From: an uncultured bacterium
GTDB lineage: Bacteria > Babelota > Babeliae > Babelales > Babelaceae
DNA: 64,000 nucleotides
Assembly (NCBI GenBank): GCA_963848965.1
Contig: CAWKFG010000001.1
Location: forward strand, 512,001 to 576,000
Direction: 5' to 3'
In this document: one piece after another, positions 16,092 through 63,752 of the stretch
How positions within the stretch are numbered: the first letter of the stretch is position 1
How the letters are laid out: each line of letters opens with the position of its first letter
The notes under the pieces: model-generated
Seen by the model: the letters and a program-made list of their open reading frames with translations, nothing else
What the model was told of the DNA's origin: nothing
Database searches by the model: none
Program-made: the position numbers and the translations under genes

Positions 16092-16126
16092 AAAGAGGCT
16101 GCATTACGCAGCCTCTTTTTTCTTTT
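16090..16126. terminator. Bidirectional intrinsic terminator
   Basis: AAAAAGAGGCTGC-ATTAC-GCAGCCTCTTTTTT between convergent genes. Confidence 0.85.
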
Positions 16127-16454
16127 ATCCTTCTGCTACAGTAAGAGCATCATCTATGTCATACAACTTAGCAAGCTGTTTGCCAAGTTCATGACGGGGA
16201 CTGAGACAAGTTTTGTCTGAATACTCTTGTGTAAATGGTTTTCCTAACTTTTGTTTTCGAATGGGAATTCCAAACGATCGTTCTATCTGTTTTTTAAGAC
16301 AGAGTACTGTATCTCCTGAATCAATTTCGGTTTCTACTGTTTGCCCAGTATGCTCATTTTTTATTTTGAGCACATATATTTGTATTGGTAAGGCCGATAA
16401 ACGAACGCGTGTTAATGCAAGCGGGAATTTGGCCAAAAAAAATCTACTGTTCAT
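16125..16454 (-). CDS. Eukaryote-type ubiquitin-like (beta-grasp) domain protein
   Basis: IQIYV...TGQTVETEIDSGDTVLCLKKQIERSFGIPIRKQKL aligns by eye with ubiquitin MQIFV.[37 protein letters not shown]; AGGGG RBS before ATG 16454. Confidence 0.7.
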   Translation of the reverse strand: MNSRFFLAKFPLALTRVRLSALPIQIYVLKIKNEHTGQTVETEIDSGDTVLCLKKQIERSFGIPIRKQKLGKPFTQEYSDKTCLSPRHELGKQLAKLYDIDDALTVAEG

Positions 16455-16748
16455 AGTGTGATTCCCCCTTCTAAAGAATATAAATGCACTATAAATCAAC
16501 GTAGACGCCAAAGCTTGAAGAACGAGAATAATATACTAGTTGTTTGGCGAACACTGCTTTAAAAAGTCCCTCCAGGTTAGTTAATTGGACATCTATATGG
16601 TACTGATAAAAAACATACTATAATAAATTTTCCAAGTCAATGTCAATAGTTTAAAAAAAATAAAATACTTAAATAGAAAATGTTGTTGCGATAAAAAAGT
16701 AAAGAAAAATGAGGATAAAATGATTATAAAAGTACAATCATTCAAATT

Positions 16749-17316: not shown

Positions 17317-20300
17317 ATGAGACAGTTTGTAGCGCTTCTGTTGCTTATGAGCGTATGTGTTGGTAACACCTTGTGTATGAAACGTGATAGAGAGGATGAG
17401 AAGCAGCATAAAAAGGTAAAAGAACCAAGAAGTAGTAAAAGTACAAAAGAAAACTCTAATTTAGAAAGAGAGCTTTTTAAGGCAATTGCTCAAAAGGATC
17501 ATACGTTAGTTCATAAGCTTATTAAGCAAGGGGTAAATATAAATACTCGAGGAACATATAAAACAACTCCTTTAATAGATGCAGTTAAAACTGGCGATAG
17601 TGAACTCGTGCGCCTTCTTCTTAGTGTAAACGCTCAGGTAAATGCTGAAGACAAGCACCTTGCTACTGCTTTAATGTATGCTGCTTATGCAGGAAATAAT
17701 GAAATTGTACGTATGCTTGCTGAAAAAAGCAAGCCTACTGAAAGTAACTCCAAAAGAGCCCTTATACTGGCATCTGCTTGTGGCCATTTAGAAATAGTAC
17801 AGTCTCTTATAGACCACGGTGTTCCTTTAGATGCTACCGAATTAGGTCAATTTTTAGGTACTTTTGTAAGCAAAGAAGATGGTGTAAAATTTAAAGGGAA
17901 CGTGTGTCCTTTAATTATTGCTTCATACTATGGTCACAGAACACTTGTTGAATGGTTCATAAAAAAAGATAAGTTCTCAATTAACACTAAATGCTATGGT
18001 CGTACCCCTTTAACAGCTGCTATAGAAGGAGGGCATAGAGACATTGTACTTATGCTCCTTAAACATGGTGCCAAAATTACTGTGGTAAAGACAGAGCATC
18101 CTCTTATTGTTGCTGTACAAAATAATCGTTATGACTGTGTAAAAGAACTTTTTGACCAAGGTCATTTTACTGCACAAACTATTGAGTATCGTACTAAAGA
18201 CGAACGAACTGCTCTTATGATTGCTGCTCAGTTAGGGTACGATAACATTATTGAGTTTCTTGTAGAAAAGTACATAATGCATGCAGTAAAATGTGAGGTC
18301 TACTATCAAGTGTTGTGTGGAGCTGTTGAAGGTGATCAAGAAGCGCTTGTGCATAAGTATATGCCATTACTGCTTGCTCTTGATGTAAAAGAAAGAACGA
18401 GAGGTATTTCTCGTGAGACGCCACTCATGCGTGCTGCTAAAATGGGTAAGGAGAAGATGGTAAAGCTGTTACTATCACTAGAAGCGTCATACTGGGACTG
18501 TAGATCAGCCTTAAGCCTTGCTCAAGACAGTGGACATAAGGAAGTAGCGGCACTTCTTGAAGGTGCTGTAAAGCGTAATACCGAAAGATACCAGCAGCTT
18601 TTAAATGCATGCTCACAAGGGGATGTGCCTCTTATAAAAGAGCTGTATCGTAAAGGAGAAGATATTTCTAATGAACCAGAAAAAAATCCTTTAATGCTTG
18701 CGGCTCAAGGTGGACATCGGGAAGCAGTATCGTTGCTTCTTGAGCATAGTACGTATAGAATAGAAGATGCTCTTCTATTAGCTGTGGAGGCTGGACATAC
18801 TGCGGTTGTAAAACTTTTGCTTGCAAAGGGCGCTCTTAATCCCGAGCGAGAATACCGTACTTTTTTTAGCAATGAGAAAAAAGTTACTCCACTTATGCGT
18901 GCAGTGGAATATGGATATACACATATTGTTGAGATGTTACTGAGTGCAGGGGCAGATATTTTTGCTCAAGATAAAGAAGGGCACAGCGCTTTAGCCTGGG
19001 CAAAGTTTAAAAACAACCATTCTATGGTAAGTATGCTTGAAGCAGAAATATGCTATAGAGAAGAATTATCCAAACGCTTTCTTCTAGCGTCAAGCTGTGG
19101 AAATGTAATTCAAGTGAAAGAGTTACTTGAGCAGCCTATAGATACTACCGTACAAGATGAAGAAGGTAGAACTGCTTTAGAGCTTGCTATTGTTAATAAT
19201 CACAAAGCAGTTGTTGAGCTTCTTATCGGATCACGAATGTACTCTCATGTCGACAAGGTTTTGGCTTTACAATATGCAGCCAAGACAAACGATAGTGCTC
19301 TCATAAAGTTTGTAGCAGATAAACTCGGTGAGCGACATATTTTAAGAGTAGACTTAAAGGCTCTTGAATGTGCTGCAATGCATGGAAATGAGAATGCTTT
19401 AAGTAGCCTTATAAACATGTATCTTCATGATTGCTATGGTCCTTCAAAAACAAAAAGGTTGAACGTTACTATAGCTACATTAGCAGGAGCTGCTCGAGGT
19501 AATAGAAGTATGCTTGTAAAGAAAACTTTAGGTAAATTAAAAAACTGGCCAGCCGATGGAAAGCGGTCGCTCCTTACTCTTGCTGCTGCAAATGGGTCAT
19601 TAGACATAGTAAAATTATTTATACAAAAAGGATGTCCTATAAATGAGCACGATGAAGAAGGGAGTAATGCGCTTATAGCAGCAGCACAAGGGGGCTTTAT
19701 AGAGCTTATGGAATTCTTGCTTGAGCAGGGTATTGATAATGCTCATGAAAATAAGCATGGTATATCTGCATTGGCATGTGCTGCAGGTACTGGTCAGAAG
19801 GATGCAATACAGATACTCCTCAAAAGAAGAGTTCCGATAACAAAAATGGCATTTCATCAAACAATAGCGCGAAATCATGAAGAGATTATAACTCTTCTCC
19901 TAGAAGCGAGTGAAGATAAACACTTTGCCCTTACTACCGCACTCTTTGAAGCTGTTATGTATGGTAGAACTACGTTGGTAGGATACTTAATAAAGCAGAT
20001 AGCACATTTAAATGTTAGAACAGAGAATAATAAGACACTTCTTATGGTTGCCATCGAATGCGATCATTGGGATATTGTAGAGCTTCTTATTGCATCAGGT
20101 GTAGATCTTTATGCCTGCGATGCACAAGGGCGTAGTGCCTTGCAGGTAGCGCAAGAAAAGGGAATGGAAGAAGCTTTTGAACGTATGTGTACTCATGCTT
20201 TACAAGGCAAAAATGAGATTTTACAAAGATTATTTAAAGCTGTTAGTGAGAATGATAAACCTTTGTTAGAAGAACTTTTAAAGAGTAAAGCTCACGTTTC

Positions 20301-22275
20301 AATGGTTGATGAGCGGGGTAGGACGCTCTTAATTGTTGCAGCTCAAATGGGCAATAGAGATTTAGTAGAGCTCTTATTGCGCTATAGAGCGGATGTTAAC
20401 GCATGTGATAAAGATCAAGGTACAGCGTTGACGCATGCTGCTGCTTTAGGGCATGAGGAAATCGTAAAACTTCTTATGAAGGAACCGCTTTCGCACAGTC
20501 AATTCGCTAATGCAATGCAAAAGGCTGCCCACAATGGTCATGATACCATTGTGCTTCTTTTACTTTCAGAAAGTTCATCAGATAGAAATGAGGCTCTTAC
20601 AAATGCATTACACGCTGCTGCGCTAGGAGGTAGAAATGGCTTAGTGTCTCGCTTACTGGATGCTGGTGCTACTATCAATGCTCGAAGCTCTCTAGAACAG
20701 ACTCCTTTAATGTGGGCAGCATGGGCAGGGCATAAGGAACTAGTACAGACTCTATTAACTGCTGGTGCAGATGTTACAGCTCAGGATACTGCAAAACAGG
20801 ATGCTTTAGAATATGCTAAAAAAATGGAACGTACAGATGTAGTAAATCTCCTGCAAGAAGCTCTTTCTGATAAAGAAACATTGCAAAAGAATTTCATGCA
20901 AGCATGTATTCGTGGTGATAGTTCCTCAGTAAGAACATTAGTTAAGCAGGGTGTAACTATTAATTATCAAAATCAAGGTAGAGTTACTGCTTTAATGCAT
21001 GCAGCACATAAAGGACATGCAGATATTGTATACTATTTACTTGAACAAGGTGCTCAAGTGACCCTACAGGATATCTACAAAAGGACTGCTTTAGCATATG
21101 CTGTACTTAAAAACCATAAAGAGATTGCAGAACGTTTGTTGCAAGCTTCAACTAATGAACAGGAAGATCTTAATGAAAGCATAAAGCTTGCAACTGAAAA
21201 CAGCTCATATGAAATGCTTCTATTCCTTATGGAGAAAAGTGAAGACAAGACTAAGGCTTTTAGTCTTGCTTTAACAGGAAGCAGTACAAAAGGTAGATAT
21301 GAGATAGTAGAGAAATTGCTAGACGCAGGAGGGGATATTCTTAAGGAAAAATTGCATGCAATTGCTTCTATTGCGCTAAAAGAAGCTGCTGGTAATGGTC
21401 ATACAAACATTATTAAACTCTTGCTAAGCAGGGGAGCATTACTACGTGTTCCAGGGCAGTTTCATTTGCCACCTGCATTGCAACTGGCAGCTGAAAATGG
21501 ACATCTTGAGGCATTTACATTTCTTGTTGGATTGCATAGTAACACTCTATCTCTCACAGAATTATATAAAAAGATACCTTCTATTATGGGTAATTGTATT
21601 GCAAAAACATATACAACAGGTCCTTCTGCTTTTTTTGCGTCTCTAAAGAAGAACTATTATGATGAAATACTCTTACTTGCAAGACTTCTAAATTCAGCGG
21701 AGATAGTGGCATATCTTAAAGATCCTACTACTGTGAGTAATGAATATATAAGAATATATAAAGAGATTGGCGTTTATACTCGTACTCAATTATCTAGACA
21801 AACGCTGCTTATGTGGGCTTGTATGTTTGGTCATAAAGAAGTTGTAAAGAACCTTTTGGCTGCAGGATTGCCAGCCACTGTTATTAATACTCGAGATATA
21901 TTTGGTCGTACGGCACTCATGTATGCTCTTTTCTACGGTCATAAAGATTGTGCTCTTGCTCTTCTAGACTATTACGCTAAAGAAGCAGAGCTTATACAGG
22001 CTTCATATAAAGAAGATAATGATGCTCGCAATAAAGCTTTTATGACTTTAGGTATCAACCTCACAGATAACAAAGGTGAGACAGCGCTCTTTTATGCAGT
22101 ATTACAAGGAGATCTTGCTCTTGTTAACAAGCTTCTGGTAATGGGAGCACGGCTTTCAACAGATAAAAGAAAAGTTGCTCTTGCTCTTAAAATAGCAGCA
22201 GAGCATGGTTGGAAAGAGCTTTTGATACGATTACTCTTTAAGTGTAAGAATCTACCGCCTCTTTTTAATGCCTAG
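17317..22275 (+). CDS. Very large exported ankyrin-repeat protein (1652 aa)
   Basis: Dozens of TPL/TALMxAA..G..IVxLLL..GA repeats; signal peptide ending TLC|MKR, then a basic patch. Confidence 0.93.
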   Translation: MRQFVALLLLMSVCVGNTLCMKRDREDEKQHKKVKEPRSSKSTKENSNLERELFKAIAQKDHTLVHKLIKQGVNINTRGTYKTTPLIDAVKTGDSELVRLLLSVNAQVNAEDKHLATALMYAAYAGNNEIVRMLAEKSKPTESNSKRALILASACGHLEIVQSLIDHGVPLDATELGQFLGTFVSKEDGVKFKGNVCPLIIASYYGHRTLVEWFIKKDKFSINTKCYGRTPLTAAIEGGHRDIVLMLLKHGAKITVVKTEHPLIVAVQNNRYDCVKELFDQGHFTAQTIEYRTKDERTALMIAAQLGYDNIIEFLVEKYIMHAVKCEVYYQVLCGAVEGDQEALVHKYMPLLLALDVKERTRGISRETPLMRAAKMGKEKMVKLLLSLEASYWDCRSALSLAQDSGHKEVAALLEGAVKRNTERYQQLLNACSQGDVPLIKELYRKGEDISNEPEKNPLMLAAQGGHREAVSLLLEHSTYRIEDALLLAVEAGHTAVVKLLLAKGALNPEREYRTFFSNEKKVTPLMRAVEYGYTHIVEMLLSAGADIFAQDKEGHSALAWAKFKNNHSMVSMLEAEICYREELSKRFLLASSCGNVIQVKELLEQPIDTTVQDEEGRTALELAIVNNHKAVVELLIGSRMYSHVDKVLALQYAAKTNDSALIKFVADKLGERHILRVDLKALECAAMHGNENALSSLINMYLHDCYGPSKTKRLNVTIATLAGAARGNRSMLVKKTLGKLKNWPADGKRSLLTLAAANGSLDIVKLFIQKGCPINEHDEEGSNALIAAAQGGFIELMEFLLEQGIDNAHENKHGISALACAAGTGQKDAIQILLKRRVPITKMAFHQTIARNHEEIITLLLEASEDKHFALTTALFEAVMYGRTTLVGYLIKQIAHLNVRTENNKTLLMVAIECDHWDIVELLIASGVDLYACDAQGRSALQVAQEKGMEEAFERMCTHALQGKNEILQRLFKAVSENDKPLLEELLKSKAHVSMVDERGRTLLIVAAQMGNRDLVELLLRYRADVNACDKDQGTALTHAAALGHEEIVKLLMKEPLSHSQFANAMQKAAHNGHDTIVLLLLSESSSDRNEALTNALHAAALGGRNGLVSRLLDAGATINARSSLEQTPLMWAAWAGHKELVQTLLTAGADVTAQDTAKQDALEYAKKMERTDVVNLLQEALSDKETLQKNFMQACIRGDSSSVRTLVKQGVTINYQNQGRVTALMHAAHKGHADIVYYLLEQGAQVTLQDIYKRTALAYAVLKNHKEIAERLLQASTNEQEDLNESIKLATENSSYEMLLFLMEKSEDKTKAFSLALTGSSTKGRYEIVEKLLDAGGDILKEKLHAIASIALKEAAGNGHTNIIKLLLSRGALLRVPGQFHLPPALQLAAENGHLEAFTFLVGLHSNTLSLTELYKKIPSIMGNCIAKTYTTGPSAFFASLKKNYYDEILLLARLLNSAEIVAYLKDPTTVSNEYIRIYKEIGVYTRTQLSRQTLLMWACMFGHKEVVKNLLAAGLPATVINTRDIFGRTALMYALFYGHKDCALALLDYYAKEAELIQASYKEDNDARNKAFMTLGINLTDNKGETALFYAVLQGDLALVNKLLVMGARLSTDKRKVALALKIAAEHGWKELLIRLLFKCKNLPPLFNA

Positions 22276-56429: not shown

Positions 56430-56676
56430 AAAGTGTCTGATTATTCAGATCTGCTCGCCATAATAAAAACTACTTGAACAAAATTCAAATTTCTTATAGA
56501 ATATAAAAGCAATCTTAAGATATATTTTAAGCGGTTTGTTGTACATCGTGCTGAGCATATAAGTCATTGCAAAGTGAGCTTTACTGTTGTATACCTCTGG
56601 TAGGTACTCTTCATTAGCTTAAAATAACAGGTGTTTTTCTCTGTGTAATGGCTCAGATTCTCGCTTAATGGAGTTT

Positions 56677-57858
56677 ATGATGAAATGTATAGTAGTTTTG
56701 GCATGTATAGGAGCCTTTTTCTCTTGTATACAGATAGAAGCAGGTGGGCAAGAGGCTCTTGAGCACTTAGGAAAAGAGGAGCCTACTCTTTCTGGTATTC
56801 CTGCTGATATGCAGCGCTTTATTTGTAAGCTGCTTATTCAAGAACAGGAAAAGAATATAGAAAAAAATAAAGAAGAGTTTGATTGTGAAGACTATGATAC
56901 TCAAGAGGAAAAAGAGATAAAAAGATATAAAAACAATTATAAAGCTCTTGCTTTGCTTGCAGACGCTCTTGCGCCGCTTTTGATGAACAAGCGTTTAACT
57001 GCACTGGTTATAAAGCTTATCGCAGAACGACTGCAATGTTCAGAGTTTTTAGTTGCAACCTATCTAGCTGGTAAAACAACCTATCTGAGTAGTAAAATTT
57101 ACTTGTCTCTATGGCTTAAAAATAGCATTAGTACTACATCCGATAGTGATGTCCTTGCCAAAACTATTAATACGCTTGATCCTGTCTATGATACTAACCC
57201 TTTCTTTGAATCTCTTAAGCAAAAAAATGAAACTCTTATCAAGCTCCTTCTTGTACATGGTGCTCTCCTTTCTGTAGAAAATACTCGTAAAATGACTCCT
57301 TTAATGGTTGCGGCTCATCATCAAGAAGATTTTTTTAAGCAACGGCTTCATGTTGCAGTAGATGCTCTTTATTGTGATCCTCATCAGATAGTACAATCTT
57401 ATCTTAGTAAAAAAGATTACCAAGGAAGAACTGCTCTCTACCATGCAGTCAGAAAAAATAATCTTACTGCTACACAAGAGCTCTTAGGGTCTGGAGCAGA
57501 GATAAACGCAAAAACTAGTACTTCTACGACTTCTCTTCACCGTGCTGCTAGCAATGGAAATAGTGCTATTGTTTCGCTTTTATTGCAGAATGGTGCTCAT
57601 ATTAACGCTCAGGATTTTGGTGGAAAAACTCCACTTATGAGAGCTTTTATAGAGTGGGGTACTTATGCAGAAGAGAAGAAAAAATGGGATGACTATACTT
57701 CAGCTATTAGGGTACTTTTAGAAGATAAAAATATTGACCTTTTGGTAGAAGATAACGAGAATAAAACTGCAGTAGATTGGGCACAGATGCTTGCCGCTAT
57801 TAATATCCCTATTGCTACTTTATTGCCATCTCTTCAAGAAAAGCTTAACTTGCCATAA
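56677..57858 (+). CDS. Exported ankyrin protein with F-box-like motif
   Basis: IEA|GGQE; TLSGIPADMQRFICKLL; GRTALYHA, TTSLHRAA, GKTPLMRA. Confidence 0.85.
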   Translation: MMKCIVVLACIGAFFSCIQIEAGGQEALEHLGKEEPTLSGIPADMQRFICKLLIQEQEKNIEKNKEEFDCEDYDTQEEKEIKRYKNNYKALALLADALAPLLMNKRLTALVIKLIAERLQCSEFLVATYLAGKTTYLSSKIYLSLWLKNSISTTSDSDVLAKTINTLDPVYDTNPFFESLKQKNETLIKLLLVHGALLSVENTRKMTPLMVAAHHQEDFFKQRLHVAVDALYCDPHQIVQSYLSKKDYQGRTALYHAVRKNNLTATQELLGSGAEINAKTSTSTTSLHRAASNGNSAIVSLLLQNGAHINAQDFGGKTPLMRAFIEWGTYAEEKKKWDDYTSAIRVLLEDKNIDLLVEDNENKTAVDWAQMLAAINIPIATLLPSLQEKLNLP

Positions 57859-57992: not shown

Positions 57993-59513
57993 ATGTCTAT
58001 AAAACAACTTGGTCGTATACTTGTATTTTTATCTATAGGATCATTTGTTTATTCTATGGAGCCGGTAGATACGACGCCGGTAAGTCCTAAGGTGCATAGA
58101 CCGTTCCTTACTATTGAAGATATGAGGGAATGGAGACAGAATGCATCGATAAGAAAAGAGATAGCTAAAGCAGAAAGTTTGAAGTTGAAAGCTCTTAAAG
58201 CAGGGATTAACGCGTTAACTCCTGCAGAGGCGTTGCGCAAAGTTAACCAAGAGTTTGAGCATGCCAAAGGTGTTATAGTTGCTTGTGATAGAGTGCCTAA
58301 GAATACGTCTTCAAAGCAGACTGAGCTTGAAAAGCAAAGACAGGAGCTTGTTAAAATTAAGAGAGTATTTGATGATACTCCTGATATGTATGTTTATGCA
58401 CAAGAGCATGAGCAGGCTTTGTATGCGCAGTTAGTACCAGACATGATTACGCTTATAGAGCTTGGTGTGCAGTTAACAGAATTAACTAAGCGTGGGGTAG
58501 TCTTTGAAAAGTTGGCAACTGAATTTCAGGGTAAGCTTTCTGTTTTAATAGAAAATTATAATAAGGTAATTCGTTCTTTTGATCAATTTCTTAAGAAAGA
58601 GATGGCTGATTTAGAAACGGCACTTGTTCGTAAAGAGCAAGAGGTTCAGAAAGAAGCTGCTGCTGTTGAGACTATGCAAGAAGGTATAAGAGCTCGTAAA
58701 GAGCAAATCACAAAAGGGTTTAAGGTACAAAAAAACGCTCGTGCGATTTCAAATAACCTTGAACCGCAGCTTAAGCAAGCAGAGGCAAAGAAAGAGCACT
58801 CAGTACAACAATGTGCGATATTGTTTCATAGCTTTAAACAAAGCTTACAAAATTATGCTCAAAAGCAAACATATTGGGCTATTAATGATGTAGGTGCATT
58901 ACTTAATGCTATGATTGCACAGCTTGATAAAGAGTTTATAATAAGGGCATTTAATAGACTTGAAGCTGATCAAGCTCTAAGAAATATGGTAGGAACGGCT
59001 ATAGAACGATTTAAAGCAATTCCAGGCCTTTATGAAGGGCTTATGAGAACGCTTCAGAATTATTTGCTGCTTATATGTTCTCCAGATCTAGCACCGAGAG
59101 CAAAGGGTTATGAATGGGAGATTACAGTTGCTTGCTGGCTTTATAAGACGCTTGTTGAGCATCAAGATACAATGCGTATGAATTCTATGAAGAGCTTGCG
59201 TTCAAGAGATTTTTCACGTGAATTTGATATTGTTCTTGAAGAGCAAAGGGTGCTTATTGAGTGTAAGAATCGTCATTGGCATACTACTCATTTTAGTAAG
59301 ATTCATCAGCAATTTTTAGATCAAAAGGAAATTGCTCAAGAGTTGAAGTATTTGTTTATGATTGTTTCTCGCCATACATTAGATTATGAGATGAGAAGGT
59401 TTCTTCGTCAAAAAGATATTCTCTATCTTGAGCCGGGAACATCACTCGAGCTTTCTATTCTTAAAGAGCCGTGCAATACATTGTATACAGATACCTATTG
59501 TACACATAAATAA
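57993..59513 (+). CDS. Exported coiled-coil protein with C-terminal PD-(D/E)XK nuclease-like domain
   Basis: VYS|MEP; KGYEWE...REFDIV...LIECKN. Confidence 0.65.
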   Translation: MSIKQLGRILVFLSIGSFVYSMEPVDTTPVSPKVHRPFLTIEDMREWRQNASIRKEIAKAESLKLKALKAGINALTPAEALRKVNQEFEHAKGVIVACDRVPKNTSSKQTELEKQRQELVKIKRVFDDTPDMYVYAQEHEQALYAQLVPDMITLIELGVQLTELTKRGVVFEKLATEFQGKLSVLIENYNKVIRSFDQFLKKEMADLETALVRKEQEVQKEAAAVETMQEGIRARKEQITKGFKVQKNARAISNNLEPQLKQAEAKKEHSVQQCAILFHSFKQSLQNYAQKQTYWAINDVGALLNAMIAQLDKEFIIRAFNRLEADQALRNMVGTAIERFKAIPGLYEGLMRTLQNYLLLICSPDLAPRAKGYEWEITVACWLYKTLVEHQDTMRMNSMKSLRSRDFSREFDIVLEEQRVLIECKNRHWHTTHFSKIHQQFLDQKEIAQELKYLFMIVSRHTLDYEMRRFLRQKDILYLEPGTSLELSILKEPCNTLYTDTYCTHK

Positions 59514-59525
59514 GGTAAGGCAGTA

Positions 59526-60242
59526 CTAAAGTGCTGCCTTATCATTTTTTAAAGCTACCGATTCTGTTGGTAGTTTGTTTTTTGATAATTTATCAGCAAG
59601 GCGAGTTGGTTCTGGTAATCGGTAGCCTTTGCTGCAGGCAAGTACATACTTGATACTTGTTTCAAGGCTTATAAGGTGACCTACTGAGATAAACAAAGGA
59701 GCTACGTTTGTTCGTGTACGTACTACAGCTCCAATACATTCTCCTTTACCTACAAGTGGTACCCAAGAGCCAGCTTGTTTGCCTAAGCACTGTTCATCAA
59801 ACTTTCCTGTAAGTAGCGATTTTCCGCAGCCAATAGTAGGTATACTGAGCCAGAGGCCAAGATGTGAAGCGATACCAATCCGTCTTGGATGAGCTATGCC
59901 CATACCGTCAACCATAATAAGGTCTGGCTTCTGCTGAAGCTTTGCAAATGCTCCTAGCATAGAGGGTATTTCTCGAAAGGAAAGGAGGCCTGGTATGTAA
60001 GGCATACGTAAAGGCTCTTCATGAACATGGTATTCTATCATGCGTAACTCTGGATAAGAAAGCAAAACAACTGCAGCTCGAGCCATATTTTTTTCTTGAG
60101 TAAGTGCTACATCTATGCCAGCTATAGTACGTACCTCTGTTATAGTATCCTTACAGATGATCTGCTTTGCCAATTCTCGTTGAAGGGCAATAGCTTGTTG
60201 CTCTGTGAGATTCCAGGTATGCAATGGCAGTTTTGTGTTCAT
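59526..60242 (-). CDS. nfi: Endonuclease V
   Basis: IAGIDVA, PYIPGLLSFRE, MVDGMGIAHPRRIGIASHLG, PTIGCGKS, YRLPEPTRLAD. Confidence 0.96.
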   Translation of the reverse strand: MNTKLPLHTWNLTEQQAIALQRELAKQIICKDTITEVRTIAGIDVALTQEKNMARAAVVLLSYPELRMIEYHVHEEPLRMPYIPGLLSFREIPSMLGAFAKLQQKPDLIMVDGMGIAHPRRIGIASHLGLWLSIPTIGCGKSLLTGKFDEQCLGKQAGSWVPLVGKGECIGAVVRTRTNVAPLFISVGHLISLETSIKYVLACSKGYRLPEPTRLADKLSKNKLPTESVALKNDKAAL

Positions 60243-60281: not shown

Positions 60282-61370
60282 TTAACACTGGTGTCCGTAG
60301 CCGCCAGATGATGCCCAGGGTCTTCTACATCTCCAGCAGAATTCATGTTTACAATGTTTACAGGTCATATGATTGCATCCTTGATTCTTTTCGATCATAG
60401 CTCTACAAGAAGGACAACGTTGGGCGCCGAATTTTTGAGCATATTCATCAACAACATCTTGTGCGCACTCACTGTTATTTCCAAAAGGAGAGCTTTTATG
60501 TGGGTGTAAGCAGCGAGCACAGTATGTTTGCTTGCATTTTTGACAATTTATTTCGATTGCAGCATCCCATTCATAAATAAAAGCGAAACCGCATTTAGGG
60601 TTTGGGCAGTATTTGAGACCAGGTGTTTTTTTAAGTGTCTGCTCAAGTACAATGGTATCAAATTCTTCTAGCTCTTGTTTATTTTGTAGAATCAGTTCAA
60701 GATCTTGACGGGTATGTTCTTGTCTACATCCGAACTGAGGGCATAATGGAATTTCTTTATTTCTTTTGGAGACCATAAAGTGAGCATTAAGACATTCTCT
60801 GCAGTAGATGTGACCGCAGTGTAATCTTATTGCATCTGGTCTTGCTATGCGAGGGTTAAAGCAAATGTGACATACAAAGTACTCTTGTGCATAATTAAAT
60901 TGAGGACGCTCTGCAAAGATGTTATCAGTATGTTGACGAGCTGGTGCTGCAGGTCGTGCAATGTCAGGATTTTCAGTGTAAGTATGAGGGCGAGCTGCGG
61001 GTTCTTCAGGCATTGAAGATTGACGAGCAGCAGGTTCTGCAGCTCGTGCAGTAGCAGCGTCCTCAGTAAAGTGGTTATGAGTATAAGGGTGAGCTGTTGG
61101 TTCTGCAGGCATTGAAGATTGAGGATTTTCAGTAGGGGAGCCGTAGGCAGTAGATGGTCTGGGAGTAGATTCTTGTTGTTTTCTCTTTTTTATAAGGGAA
61201 TGTAATACAATACCAGCACATACGGAGCCCAGAATAAGTGCTACTATATGTCTTTTTGATGAAGTTCTCTTTCTTACTGTTTGTTCGTGTACTGTTGGTA
61301 ATGGGATAGTAGTACCTCCTATACTTATAAGAATAACAAAAGTGCTTGCTCTCAGGGTGGCTCTTTTCAT
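60282..61370 (-). CDS. RING-between-RING (RBR) E3 ubiquitin ligase homolog, membrane-anchored
   Basis: RING1 CHIC..CGHIYCREC..CPQFGC; IBR CPNPKC..CQKC..CARC..H; RING2 CPSCRAMIEKNQGCNHMTCKHCKHEFCWRC; two N-terminal hydrophobic segments. Confidence 0.9.
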   Translation of the reverse strand: MKRATLRASTFVILISIGGTTIPLPTVHEQTVRKRTSSKRHIVALILGSVCAGIVLHSLIKKRKQQESTPRPSTAYGSPTENPQSSMPAEPTAHPYTHNHFTEDAATARAAEPAARQSSMPEEPAARPHTYTENPDIARPAAPARQHTDNIFAERPQFNYAQEYFVCHICFNPRIARPDAIRLHCGHIYCRECLNAHFMVSKRNKEIPLCPQFGCRQEHTRQDLELILQNKQELEEFDTIVLEQTLKKTPGLKYCPNPKCGFAFIYEWDAAIEINCQKCKQTYCARCLHPHKSSPFGNNSECAQDVVDEYAQKFGAQRCPSCRAMIEKNQGCNHMTCKHCKHEFCWRCRRPWASSGGYGHQC

Positions 61371-61442
61371 AAAATTCCTTTATCTACAAGTGAACTCCGC
61401 AATTCAGCTTATATTCCTAACGCATTTGACGAAGAAGGCTTT

Positions 61443-62387
61443 TTAGCCAAAGAAGCAGTTATGTCCGTATGATGTCCAGCGGGCTCCGCAGGTCCAGCAA
61501 AACTCATATTTGCATTGTTGGCAGGTCATATGAGGACATCCGCCATTCTTTTCAATCATAGCTTTGCAAGCAGGGCATCGTTTAGCGCCAGCTTTTTGAG
61601 CAAACTTATCAACTGTATCTTGTGGACATCCACCATTTCCGAAAAGATTTGCCCAGAAAGAGTTACTATGCGGTTGTAAACAACGAGCGCAGTAGGTCTG
61701 CTGACACTTTTGACAGGTCATGTCAGTTGCTATATTACATTCATTAATAAAAGCGAAACCGCATTTAGGATTTGGGCAGTATTTGAGGCCGCGTACCTTT
61801 TTAAGTCCCTCTTCTGCTGCTATGTTATCAAATTCTGAAAGATCTTTTTTGTCCGGTAGAGTTTTTTCTAGATCTTCTCGTGTACACTCACGTCTGCAGC
61901 CAACTTGAGGACATCGTGGTAGATTTTTATCTTTCTTAGATATATTAATATGACCATTAAGGCAATCTCTGCAGAAGCTATGACCGCAGTGTAATCTTAC
62001 TATATCTTCTTTAGCTACTCGATAGTCAAAGCAAATACTACAATAATGATAATTTCCATAATTATAGTAATTATTTGAGTAAGGATCGTTAATCCTTTGC
62101 CCTTTAGCAAAGTAGTCATCAGGATTGGGACGAGCAGAGGGTTCTGGTGCTGTAGCATTTGCAAATTTTTGCTGCTTTACCTTTTTTACAAGGTAATGAA
62201 GTGCAATACCCGCACATATAGAGCCAATGATCCAGGCTGCTATGCGTTTAGTAGAGCGTGTTTTTTTAGCTGGTTTTTCTTCCGTTGGAGTTAATAGGGG
62301 ATCTGAGTCAGATGGTGCTGGGGCGGTAGTAAATACCATGCTTGCAAGGATGATAAAGATAAATGGTCTAAGAGTTGTTTTTTTCAT
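61443..62387 (-). CDS. RBR E3 ubiquitin ligase homolog, paralog
   Basis: CSIC..CGHSFCRDC..CPQVGC; CPNPKC..CQKC..CARC; CPACKAMIEKNGGCPHMTCQQCKYEFCWTC. Confidence 0.9.
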   Translation of the reverse strand: MKKTTLRPFIFIILASMVFTTAPAPSDSDPLLTPTEEKPAKKTRSTKRIAAWIIGSICAGIALHYLVKKVKQQKFANATAPEPSARPNPDDYFAKGQRINDPYSNNYYNYGNYHYCSICFDYRVAKEDIVRLHCGHSFCRDCLNGHINISKKDKNLPRCPQVGCRRECTREDLEKTLPDKKDLSEFDNIAAEEGLKKVRGLKYCPNPKCGFAFINECNIATDMTCQKCQQTYCARCLQPHSNSFWANLFGNGGCPQDTVDKFAQKAGAKRCPACKAMIEKNGGCPHMTCQQCKYEFCWTCGARWTSYGHNCFFG

Positions 62388-62624: not shown

Positions 62625-63752
62625 ATGCGTAATACAGGGCATTATGAAGTTATTGGAAACACGGAATACTTTATACCCGACCATTTACCTCCAAAAGATC
62701 CGCCATTGGTAATGGATGCAGAGATAATAGTGCTTTTTGGAGATGCTATGCTGGAGCTGGGTAAACTTAATGAGATGACAAAAAGGTTGCCAGATGATGA
62801 GCGTTTTATAAAGGCATATATTATTAAGGAAGCGCTCCTTTCGTCTTCTATTGAAGGTATTCATACAACACTTGTAGATATTTTTACACAACCGCTTTTA
62901 GAATCAAAGCCGAGTAAGGATACGCAGTTGGTAATGAATTATACAAAAGCGCTTTCTGTAGCGCTTGCGATGATTCAAAAAGAAGAACTGCCTATTTCTT
63001 CTCGTGTTATTTTGAAAGCACATGAAGCTTTGATGCAAACGGGGACCGGTAGTAAGTCTGATCCTGGAAATTATCGAAAGCAATCAGTAAAGGTGGGCAA
63101 TCTTATACCGCCACCACCAATGCGGATTCCTGGCCTCATGGCAGAGCTTGAGCGGTATATGAATGAAGATGAAGCGTTGCCGGTGCTTATTAGAGCAGGT
63201 CTTGCGCATGTCCAATTTGAAGAGATTCATCCATTTTTAGATGGCAATGGTCGTATTGGCAGACTTTTAATTGTTTTAATGCTTGTGCAAAAGGGGATTT
63301 TATCAGAGCCAATATTATATCCTTCTTATTACTTTAAGAAGTACCATTTTGAGTATTATCAACGGTTAGATCGCGTAAGAACGCATGGCGATTTCGAAGG
63401 TTGGATTAAATTCTATCTTGCTGCAGTACGAGAAAGTAGTATTGATGCTCATCGACGTGCAAAGGATATAGAGTTATTAGAAGAAAACTTAGCTTTTATT
63501 ATTAAAAACGAAAAACGTTTTAGTGCTAAAATGAGAGAATTAAGACTTCAGGCGCTTGCTCTTCTGTTTGGCTATCCGATTATTAGTATAGGCGAATTAA
63601 GTGCACAACTTGGTGTATCATATAATACTGCAAGCCAAATTATAACTAATTTTGTTGAGCTTGGGTTTCTTGTAGAAGAGACGCAGCAAAAACGAGGACG
63701 CTTATTTAAATTTAAACCATATCTTGATGTGCTTGAACGAGAATATAAGTAG
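62625..63752 (+). CDS. Fic family protein with N-terminal inhibitory motif and C-terminal HTH
   Basis: HPFLDGNGRIGR catalytic motif; SSSIEG; ISIGELSAQLGVSYNTASQII. Confidence 0.93.
   Translation: MRNTGHYEVIGNTEYFIPDHLPPKDPPLVMDAEIIVLFGDAMLELGKLNEMTKRLPDDERFIKAYIIKEALLSSSIEGIHTTLVDIFTQPLLESKPSKDTQLVMNYTKALSVALAMIQKEELPISSRVILKAHEALMQTGTGSKSDPGNYRKQSVKVGNLIPPPPMRIPGLMAELERYMNEDEALPVLIRAGLAHVQFEEIHPFLDGNGRIGRLLIVLMLVQKGILSEPILYPSYYFKKYHFEYYQRLDRVRTHGDFEGWIKFYLAAVRESSIDAHRRAKDIELLEENLAFIIKNEKRFSAKMRELRLQALALLFGYPIISIGELSAQLGVSYNTASQIITNFVELGFLVEETQQKRGRLFKFKPYLDVLEREYK

Follow-up and report, generated by a model that had tools for sequence, protein, structure and literature searches.

The stretch of DNA considered here (hereafter the window) comprises 64,000 nucleotides of a 643,180-base contig from the genome of an uncultured bacterium, and towards its end it carries two adjacent open reading frames (ORFs), A and B, which are predicted to encode RING1-IBR-RING2 (RBR) E3 ubiquitin ligases, an enzyme family that has so far been treated as eukaryotic, with further members in giant viruses. 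ORF A (60282-61370, minus strand), delimited by its open reading frame and its Pfam matches, encodes 362 amino acids (aa) and contains the longer Pro/Ala-rich linker of the two (residues 61-163). ORF B (61443-62387, minus strand) encodes 314 aa, and consists of a signal-peptide-like start, a membrane helix, a short linker and the RBR module. Both are genes of a protist-dependent soil bacterium of the phylum Dependentiae, whose genome assembly amounts to 1.73 Mb and is 88.7% complete, and the same window also contains the housekeeping genes ileS, dnaB, recF, dnaN and zwf.

An earlier interpretation made from the letters and translations alone (the sequence-only reading) had described A and B as two paralogs with all three zinc modules and the RING2 motif, and the Pfam searches bear this description out, as RING, IBR and IBR_1 families match both proteins above their cut-offs. 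ORF A scores 72.7 bits against IBR_1 (PF22191, the RING2/Rcat family; cut-off 27), 62.0 bits against IBR (PF01485; cut-off 24.3) and 24.5 bits against zf-C3HC4 (cut-off 21), and ORF B scores 62.7 bits against IBR (24.3), 59.8 against IBR_1 (27), 29.9 against zf-RING_UBOX (25.2) and 27.4 against zf-C3HC4 (21), with IBR matching two stretches in each protein. In A the module occupies residues 164-362 (60285..60881, minus strand), with zf-C3HC4 at residues 167-210, IBR at 236-291 and IBR_1 at 317-353; in B it occupies residues 113-311 (61455..62051, minus strand), as delimited by alignment with ARIH2, by a structural model and by Foldseek. The order RING1-IBR-RING2 within about 200 residues is found in both. 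The two proteins share 60% identity over the 199-aa RBR module (E 9e-90), and homology extends to the N-terminal 108 residues (40% identity, E 5.6e-12). A and B are accordingly described here as predicted complete RBR ligases of the eukaryote type.

When B was compared with all PDB chains, 42 distinct sequences matched at E <= 1e-3, all but one of which are RBR ligases or RBR/IBR fragments, the sole exception being the plain RING protein TRIM69 with a weak match (8e-5). The assignment to the Ariadne/HHARI type made earlier is upheld by the best of these matches, ARIH2 (2.2e-21) and ARIH1 (7.2e-15), which are followed by CUL9 (2e-12), HOIL-1 (6.2e-12), parkin (about 5e-8) and HOIP (1.4e-5). The ARIH2 alignment spans the whole RING1-IBR-RING2 unit (B residues 113-310 against chain residues 136-336), and pairs the stretch IEKNGGCPHMTC contained in ORF B with IEKNGGCNHMQC of ARIH2; the translation of ORF A contains IEKNQGCNHMTC. 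An AlphaFold2 model of B, built from a 91-sequence alignment, has a mean pLDDT of 78.3, with most of residues 110-240 above 90 and RING2 at 82-94. A Foldseek search of the PDB with this model returned 58 matches at E <= 1e-3; every match listed is an RBR ligase with a probability of 1.00, the top ones being parkin, ARIH2, ARIH1, HOIL-1, HOIP and RNF216; the TM-scores are low (0.2-0.4) because the three RBR domains are flexibly linked.

The residues required for catalysis are also in place. In an alignment of 174 RBR domains the catalytic column holds Cys in 174/174 rows, the +2 column His in 137/174 and the +11 column Glu or Gln in 123/174, and both A and B hold Cys, His and Glu at these columns, a triad whose role in RBR catalysis has been described (PMC11354881). 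The predicted catalytic residue is Cys332 in A (codon TGC, 60375..60377, minus strand), accompanied by His334 and Glu343 and placed by alignment, and Cys284 in B (codon TGT, 61536..61538, minus strand), accompanied by His286 and Glu295 and placed by an alignment that includes the GGC-N-H-M motif of ARIH2. A and B would be expected to transfer ubiquitin in two steps by way of an E3~ubiquitin thioester.

The affinity to Ariadne proteins does not extend to their regulatory part. In a word-indexed search with ORF A, most matches carry the Pfam Ariadne domain and several are named ariadne-1 by their source, at about 30% identity; where an organism is named, it is a protist or, in one case, a fungus. 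In A and B themselves, as had been noticed before, the chain ends right after RING2, stopping 11-14 residues past the last CxxC, and the Ariadne autoinhibitory domain (PF19422) is unmatched at E <= 0.01. The Pfam scan of the two proteins matched no UBA-like region either, and the Ariadne domain is not listed at E <= 1e-5 in the 25 relatives scanned. It has been reported that the Ariadne domain of HHARI occludes the RING2 cysteine and that parkin, HOIP, HHARI and TRIAD1 are autoinhibited by domains outside the RBR core, a mode of control that may not be universal among RBR ligases (PMC7458406). Since such domains outside the core are absent from A and B, a constitutively active, unrestrained enzyme is plausible, and regulation, if any, would have to differ from that of Ariadne proteins, parkin and HOIP.

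Ahead of the RBR module, the hydropathy profile of each protein displays the two N-terminal hydrophobic segments described earlier (A residues 10-25 and 41-60; B residues 4-25 and 48-67), the second of which is followed by KKRK in A and by KKVK in B. The first segment is short, with 13-16 hydrophobic residues, and lies at the extreme N-terminus directly after MKR or MKK. Residues 1-25 of A (61296..61370, minus strand) comprise MKR, a hydrophobic core (hydropathy 1.82) and PLP, and align with B and with P0002, a relative described below; residues 1-25 of B (62313..62387, minus strand) comprise MKK, a hydrophobic core with a hydropathy maximum of 2.11 over 15 residues and PAP, and are conserved in A and P0002. 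The second segment of A, residues 41-60 (61191..61250, minus strand), is the strongest in either protein (2.80 over 15 residues), and that of B, residues 48-67 (62187..62246, minus strand; 2.23), lies in a modelled helix (residues 47-76). The two segments are separated by 15-22 mostly charged residues and do not form a bilobed block. The best-conserved N-terminal part of A, B and P0002 is the helix motif GS(I/V)CAGI..H.L(I/V)KK. The Pro/Ala-rich linker is disordered in the model of B (pLDDT about 50-60), and in the linker of A Tandem Repeats Finder reported no repeat, while two similar SSMP..EP..A.P..Y stretches are visible by eye. Judged by these features, the first segment looks like a Sec signal peptide, and the second alone looks like a strong membrane helix.

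The family to which A and B belong is widely distributed in the phylum. Pfam IBR matches were found in 46/261 Dependentiae genomes, covering 31/145 genera and 8/21 families, and in 32/189 of those of good quality; two genomes hold 11 and 13 matches, and RBR homologs are present in single-contig genomes of the phylum. The statement of the sequence-only reading that such ligases are rarely seen in bacteria agrees with 0/14 well-known control genomes having a match, but does not stand for Dependentiae, nor for the sponge-symbiont family around Parendozoicomonas, in which 22/61 sampled genomes have IBR matches in ORFs of up to 1493 aa. This family represents a second lineage of bacteria in which RBR genes occur, and two RBR ORFs, of 591 and 663 aa, are present in Parendozoicomonas callyspongiae. 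Some relatives already carry the label "IBR domain-containing protein" in public annotation. IBR is present in each of the 25 relatives scanned, and two of them have ankyrin repeats.

When 1.84 billion cluster representatives were searched exhaustively with HMMER, 11,144 matches were obtained at E <= 1e-3, of which 11 reached E <= 1e-30. Among the 20 top matches that were looked up, four are named eukaryotic proteins (two others are named as well, and 14 have no organism label), namely an oomycete protein with eight RBR stretches and three plant proteins, one of them clustering with RSL1-like proteins. The only close relative is P0002, a protein of 307 aa encoded on a 58-kb contig of another assembly, which is 58-62% identical and has the same architecture as A and B, i.e. 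a signal-like start, a helix, a KK-rich stop and the RBR module; the best other match to B within the family of the source genome is 28-37% identical. A metagenome scan with P0002 gave 45 loci, in which identity did not exceed 35% for full-length matches and reached 53-67% in a small number of short best segments, and the contig of P0002 itself was not among these loci. A scan of a genome collection with a four-sequence alignment used two narrow peptide patterns only, so that its 6 loci greatly undercount bacterial RBRs.

A FastTree phylogeny of the 174 RBR domains, the kind of check proposed with the sequence-only reading, resolved the clade (A,(B,P0002)) with a support of 100, and joined a third RBR gene of the source genome to its ortholog P0011 with a support of 98. 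However, 67/168 inner branches are below 80 and the four named eukaryotic rows are scattered, and neither a donor nor a single origin can be claimed. The duplication that produced the pair took place within a small clade (A, B and P0002) of a large, signal-tagged Dependentiae RBR family. The third gene (C1:620703-622625, plus strand) lies outside the window and encodes a signal-peptide-like start, a coiled-coil-like region recognized by eye, ankyrin repeats and an RBR module that contains IEKNGGCPHMTC; P0011 is 77% identical to it in the RBR. Three other proteins of the phylum depart from the common pattern: in L033 the alignment shows RING1 and RING2 but lacks IBR, and a helix is present at the C-terminus; L027 has a hydrophobic, Cys-rich tail as its last part; and in L043 Arg replaces the active-site His (GGCPRVSC).

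To see how general the signal-like start is, we applied a crude rule of our own, requiring an initial Met, an early Lys or Arg and a 10-residue window with a mean hydropathy >= 2.0 in the first 35 residues. A and B both pass it, and signal peptidase I was found in the source genome. The rule is also passed by 23/27 RBR ORFs of other Dependentiae (two of the four failures are cut at the locus edge), by 92/150 best cluster representatives and by 627/1353 crude ORFs of the source genome (46%), rough numbers all of them, since the rule is not a trained predictor and also catches ordinary membrane proteins. Only 3/27 of the Dependentiae RBR relatives possess another strong hydrophobic segment, C-terminally in two of them, and a signal-like start together with a single early helix is found in only 11 ORFs of the source genome; the anchor is thus a peculiarity of the small clade of A, B and P0002.

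The export equipment of the genome is in line with what has been described for the phylum. In Chromulinavorax destructans, a cultured member of the Dependentiae, signal peptides were predicted by Phobius on 44% of the coding sequences, a value close to that obtained with the crude rule here, and on 78% of the ankyrin proteins, Sec export is described, and vesicles have been seen (Deeg et al. 2019, PMC6561590). Type II secretion components have been reported for TM6 (Yeoh 2016, PMC4776705), and the source genome agrees with this. Three secretin-domain genes (ORFs of 1153, 818 and 796 aa) are clustered within 8 kb at C4:767163-774663. On the other hand, searches of the source genome, whose incompleteness keeps absences from being proven, gave no match to FHIPEP, the type III export gate (4/14 controls match), to VirB4 of type IV systems, or to the ubiquitin-system families UQ_con (E2), U-box and F-box-like. 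The families DSBA, DsbB, Thioredoxin_4 and VKOR are likewise unmatched there and do match in controls; with these Dsb-type oxidase families unmatched, a protein with about 24 zinc-binding Cys could cross the periplasm unoxidised.

We therefore favour, with a probability of about 0.65, the reading that A and B are exported, membrane-tethered, Ariadne-like minimal RBR E3 ligases that use the E1, E2 and ubiquitin of the host. In this scheme the two proteins would enter the Sec pathway, leave the bacterium by the route of the signal-tagged effectors of the phylum, either type II-like secretins or membrane vesicles, and become anchored in a membrane such that the RBR module lies in the cytosol of the host protist. 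There RING1 would take host E2~ubiquitin, Cys284 of B or Cys332 of A would form the ubiquitin thioester, and ubiquitin would be passed to nearby host proteins, the substrates being those near the membrane. The Dependentiae RBR family as a whole probably consists of enzymes that manipulate the host.

Several points weigh against this scheme for A and B. By the positive-inside rule, the KKRK or KKVK that follows the helix would retain the RBR module inside the bacterium, on the side of the cytoplasm, where there is neither E2 nor ubiquitin, and a helix as strongly hydrophobic as the one found here (2.2-2.8) is expected to halt in the inner membrane. As the loop that precedes the helix is basic too, the topology is ambiguous. 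To our knowledge, no route from the bacterial inner membrane to a host membrane has been described for Dependentiae. In addition, the signal-peptide call itself comes from the crude rule, and the missing E2, type III, type IV and Dsb families are only as good as the completeness of the assembly.

The reading that survives best beside the favoured one takes these points at face value. A and B would then be bacterial inner-membrane proteins, whose signal peptide is cleaved off or makes up the first of two helices; transfer would stop at the second helix, leaving in the bacterial cytoplasm an RBR module that is inert or has a role unrelated to host ubiquitin. A strong helix followed by four basic residues in five is indeed a classical stop-transfer, cytoplasm-facing signature, and the window contains a weak ubiquitin-family ORF (16125-16511, minus strand, 128 aa; 29.5 bits against a cut-off of 25.4), which is the only ubiquitin-family match of the genome. 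However, this ORF covers only the first 41/72 profile positions, the genome has no E2 match, the catalytic Cys is invariant across the aligned domains, and most relatives have a signal-like start without a strong second helix, a pattern that fits export; we consider the inner-membrane location unlikely. No C-terminal Gly-Gly is visible in the ubiquitin-like ORF, and a 1652-aa ankyrin-repeat gene (17317-22275) adjoins it.

It is rather improbable, though conceivable, that A and B are competent RBR enzymes that transfer ubiquitin to non-protein targets such as membrane lipids or sugars, as HOIL-1 can. The tether would put the active site beside the bilayer, and HOIL-1, which ubiquitinates sugars in vitro (PMC11962058), is among both the sequence and the fold matches; yet the similarity is highest to the Ariadne type rather than to HOIL-1, and nothing in the sequence bears on the choice of acceptor. 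We give slightly less credence still to the proposal of the sequence-only reading that the N-terminus is a membrane hairpin like those of chlamydial Inc proteins, injected into the vacuole membrane by a dedicated system and displaying an always-active ligase. Two hydrophobic segments before a catalytic domain of cytosolic type, with no Ariadne domain behind it, do call such an arrangement to mind, but the segments are set apart by the charged stretch, the first of them lies at the extreme N-terminus, resembles a Sec signal peptide and also occurs on RBR proteins that have no second segment, and neither FHIPEP nor VirB4 was matched in the genome.

Finally, the pair might stem from eukaryotic DNA that was misjoined to a contig of the bacterium, or might have been acquired from the host very recently. 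The correlation of relative synonymous codon usage (RSCU) with the genome is 0.79 for A and 0.80 for B, where 150 ORFs of comparable size from the genome average 0.72, and the GC content at third codon positions (GC3) is 0.26 and 0.30, respectively, against a genome mean of 0.27. The start codon is preceded by AAGGA in ORF A and by an AGGA-type ribosome-binding site in ORF B (ATG in both cases), and both reading frames are uninterrupted and without introns. Chimerism with eukaryotic DNA is very unlikely because of the housekeeping neighbours, the genome-like codons, the bacterial starts, the uninterrupted frames and the Dependentiae genome around them, and A and B are bacterial genes; the refutation that the earlier interpretation had named for itself, a chimeric assembly, finds nothing in the codons, starts or neighbours to build on. 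That the RBR family is otherwise eukaryotic, that the local GC is 0.41 against 0.37, and that the sole sequencing run listed, a soil metagenome, contains 0.07 of the sampled words, with no RNA run listed, counts for little against the short spacers, which measure 72 bases between B and A and 39 bases between A and the endonuclease V gene, the ortholog P0002 on a contig of another assembly, the homologs in single-contig genomes, and the lack of any eukaryotic protein above about 41% identity, so that a misjoin or very recent transfer is hardly credible.

Returning to the favoured reading of exported, tethered ligases, a broader and clearly more doubtful extension may be put forward. Dependentiae and, independently, some animal symbionts might have made the RBR module a large class of Sec-tagged effectors, and in the clade of A, B and P0002 a signal peptide plus a stop-transfer helix, i.e. 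a eukaryote-style type I layout, might insert an Ariadne-like ligase that lacks regulation into a membrane facing the host, and do so without any injection system. If this were true, a route that moves bacterial membrane proteins into host membranes would be implied.

As for the surroundings of the pair, the endonuclease V gene (nfi, 59526-60242, minus strand) flanks it on one side and a Fic protein gene (62625-63752, plus strand) on the other. An operon B-A-nfi is only suggested by the short spacers, and in a scan for promoters and terminators the number of promoter-like sites, 11, stayed at the level of chance (9.0 expected). The Fic gene encodes Fic_N, Fic and a C-terminal winged-helix region without a signal-like start, and appears to be a common bacterial Fic protein, not one that works with the ligases. 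Near nfi, the genes at 57993-59513 and 56668-57858 (both plus strand) have signal-peptide-like starts; one encodes an ankyrin protein, and the other a protein of 506 aa without Pfam match, whose C-terminal D...E-x-K pattern recalls, by eye only, PD-(D/E)xK nucleases.

Among known systems, ARIH2 and ARIH1 are the nearest to A and B. The active-site motif IEKNGGC-x-HM-x-C is common to ARIH2 and both proteins, whereas the C-terminal Ariadne domain of ARIH2 and ARIH1 is missing from A and B, which are bacterial and have a signal-peptide-like start and an N-terminal membrane helix instead. The tethering of an RBR module by a single helix has its parallel in the membrane-anchored eukaryotic RBRs, i.e. 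RNF144A/B, RNF19A/B, RNF217 and the plant RSL1-like proteins, the last of which are among the top named matches. In these proteins, however, the membrane helix is C-terminal to the RBR, while in A and B it is N-terminal and follows a signal-peptide-like segment, and the identity is 32-40% at best. Chlamydial Inc proteins also place hydrophobic segments ahead of a domain facing the host cytosol, but in Inc proteins these segments are joined in a bilobed block, and delivery relies on type III secretion, whereas in A and B the segments are separated, the first is signal-peptide-like and the type III marker was not found in the genome.

With respect to delivery, the closest counterparts are the ankyrin effectors of Chromulinavorax destructans, which carry N-terminal signals on eukaryote-type domains and rely on Sec without type III or IV systems (PMC6561590, PMC4776705); the source genome is built likewise. 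RBR, IBR and RING are unmentioned in the accessible text of Deeg 2019 (PMC6561590) and Yeoh 2016 (PMC4776705), where the word ubiquitin occurs once in the former, in a reference title, and not in the latter. The widespread RBR modules with bacterial export signals could serve as a tractable marker for how Dependentiae, lacking type III and IV systems, deliver effectors, including membrane proteins, to their hosts.

A number of bacterial proteins, namely NEL/IpaH, the HECT-like SopA and NleL, the U-box/RING proteins LubX and NleG, and SidC, hijack host E2~ubiquitin, as A and B are proposed to do. The HECT-like and NEL types use a catalytic cysteine, and none of the types named is known to be an RBR. 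Most of these types have no sequence homology to eukaryotic E3s (PMC13728172). Most of the bacterial E3 effectors investigated to date arose by convergence or consist of simple RING/U-box domains, whereas A and B contain a full eukaryotic RBR module. In full-text searches of the literature, with subscription journals and supplements outside the scope, none of the papers listed describes a bacterial RBR/IBR ligase. What is new here is where and how a familiar enzyme family occurs: in bacteria, with an export tag, with the anchor at the N-terminus and without regulatory domains. The export tag shared across the family is of more interest than either the rarity of the family or the Inc analogy, both of which had been overstated. 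Natural minimal RBR cores without the usual autoinhibitory domains should be useful for studies of regulation, and with the widespread set of export-tagged RBR modules the effector repertoire of bacteria would gain a third class of catalytic E3.

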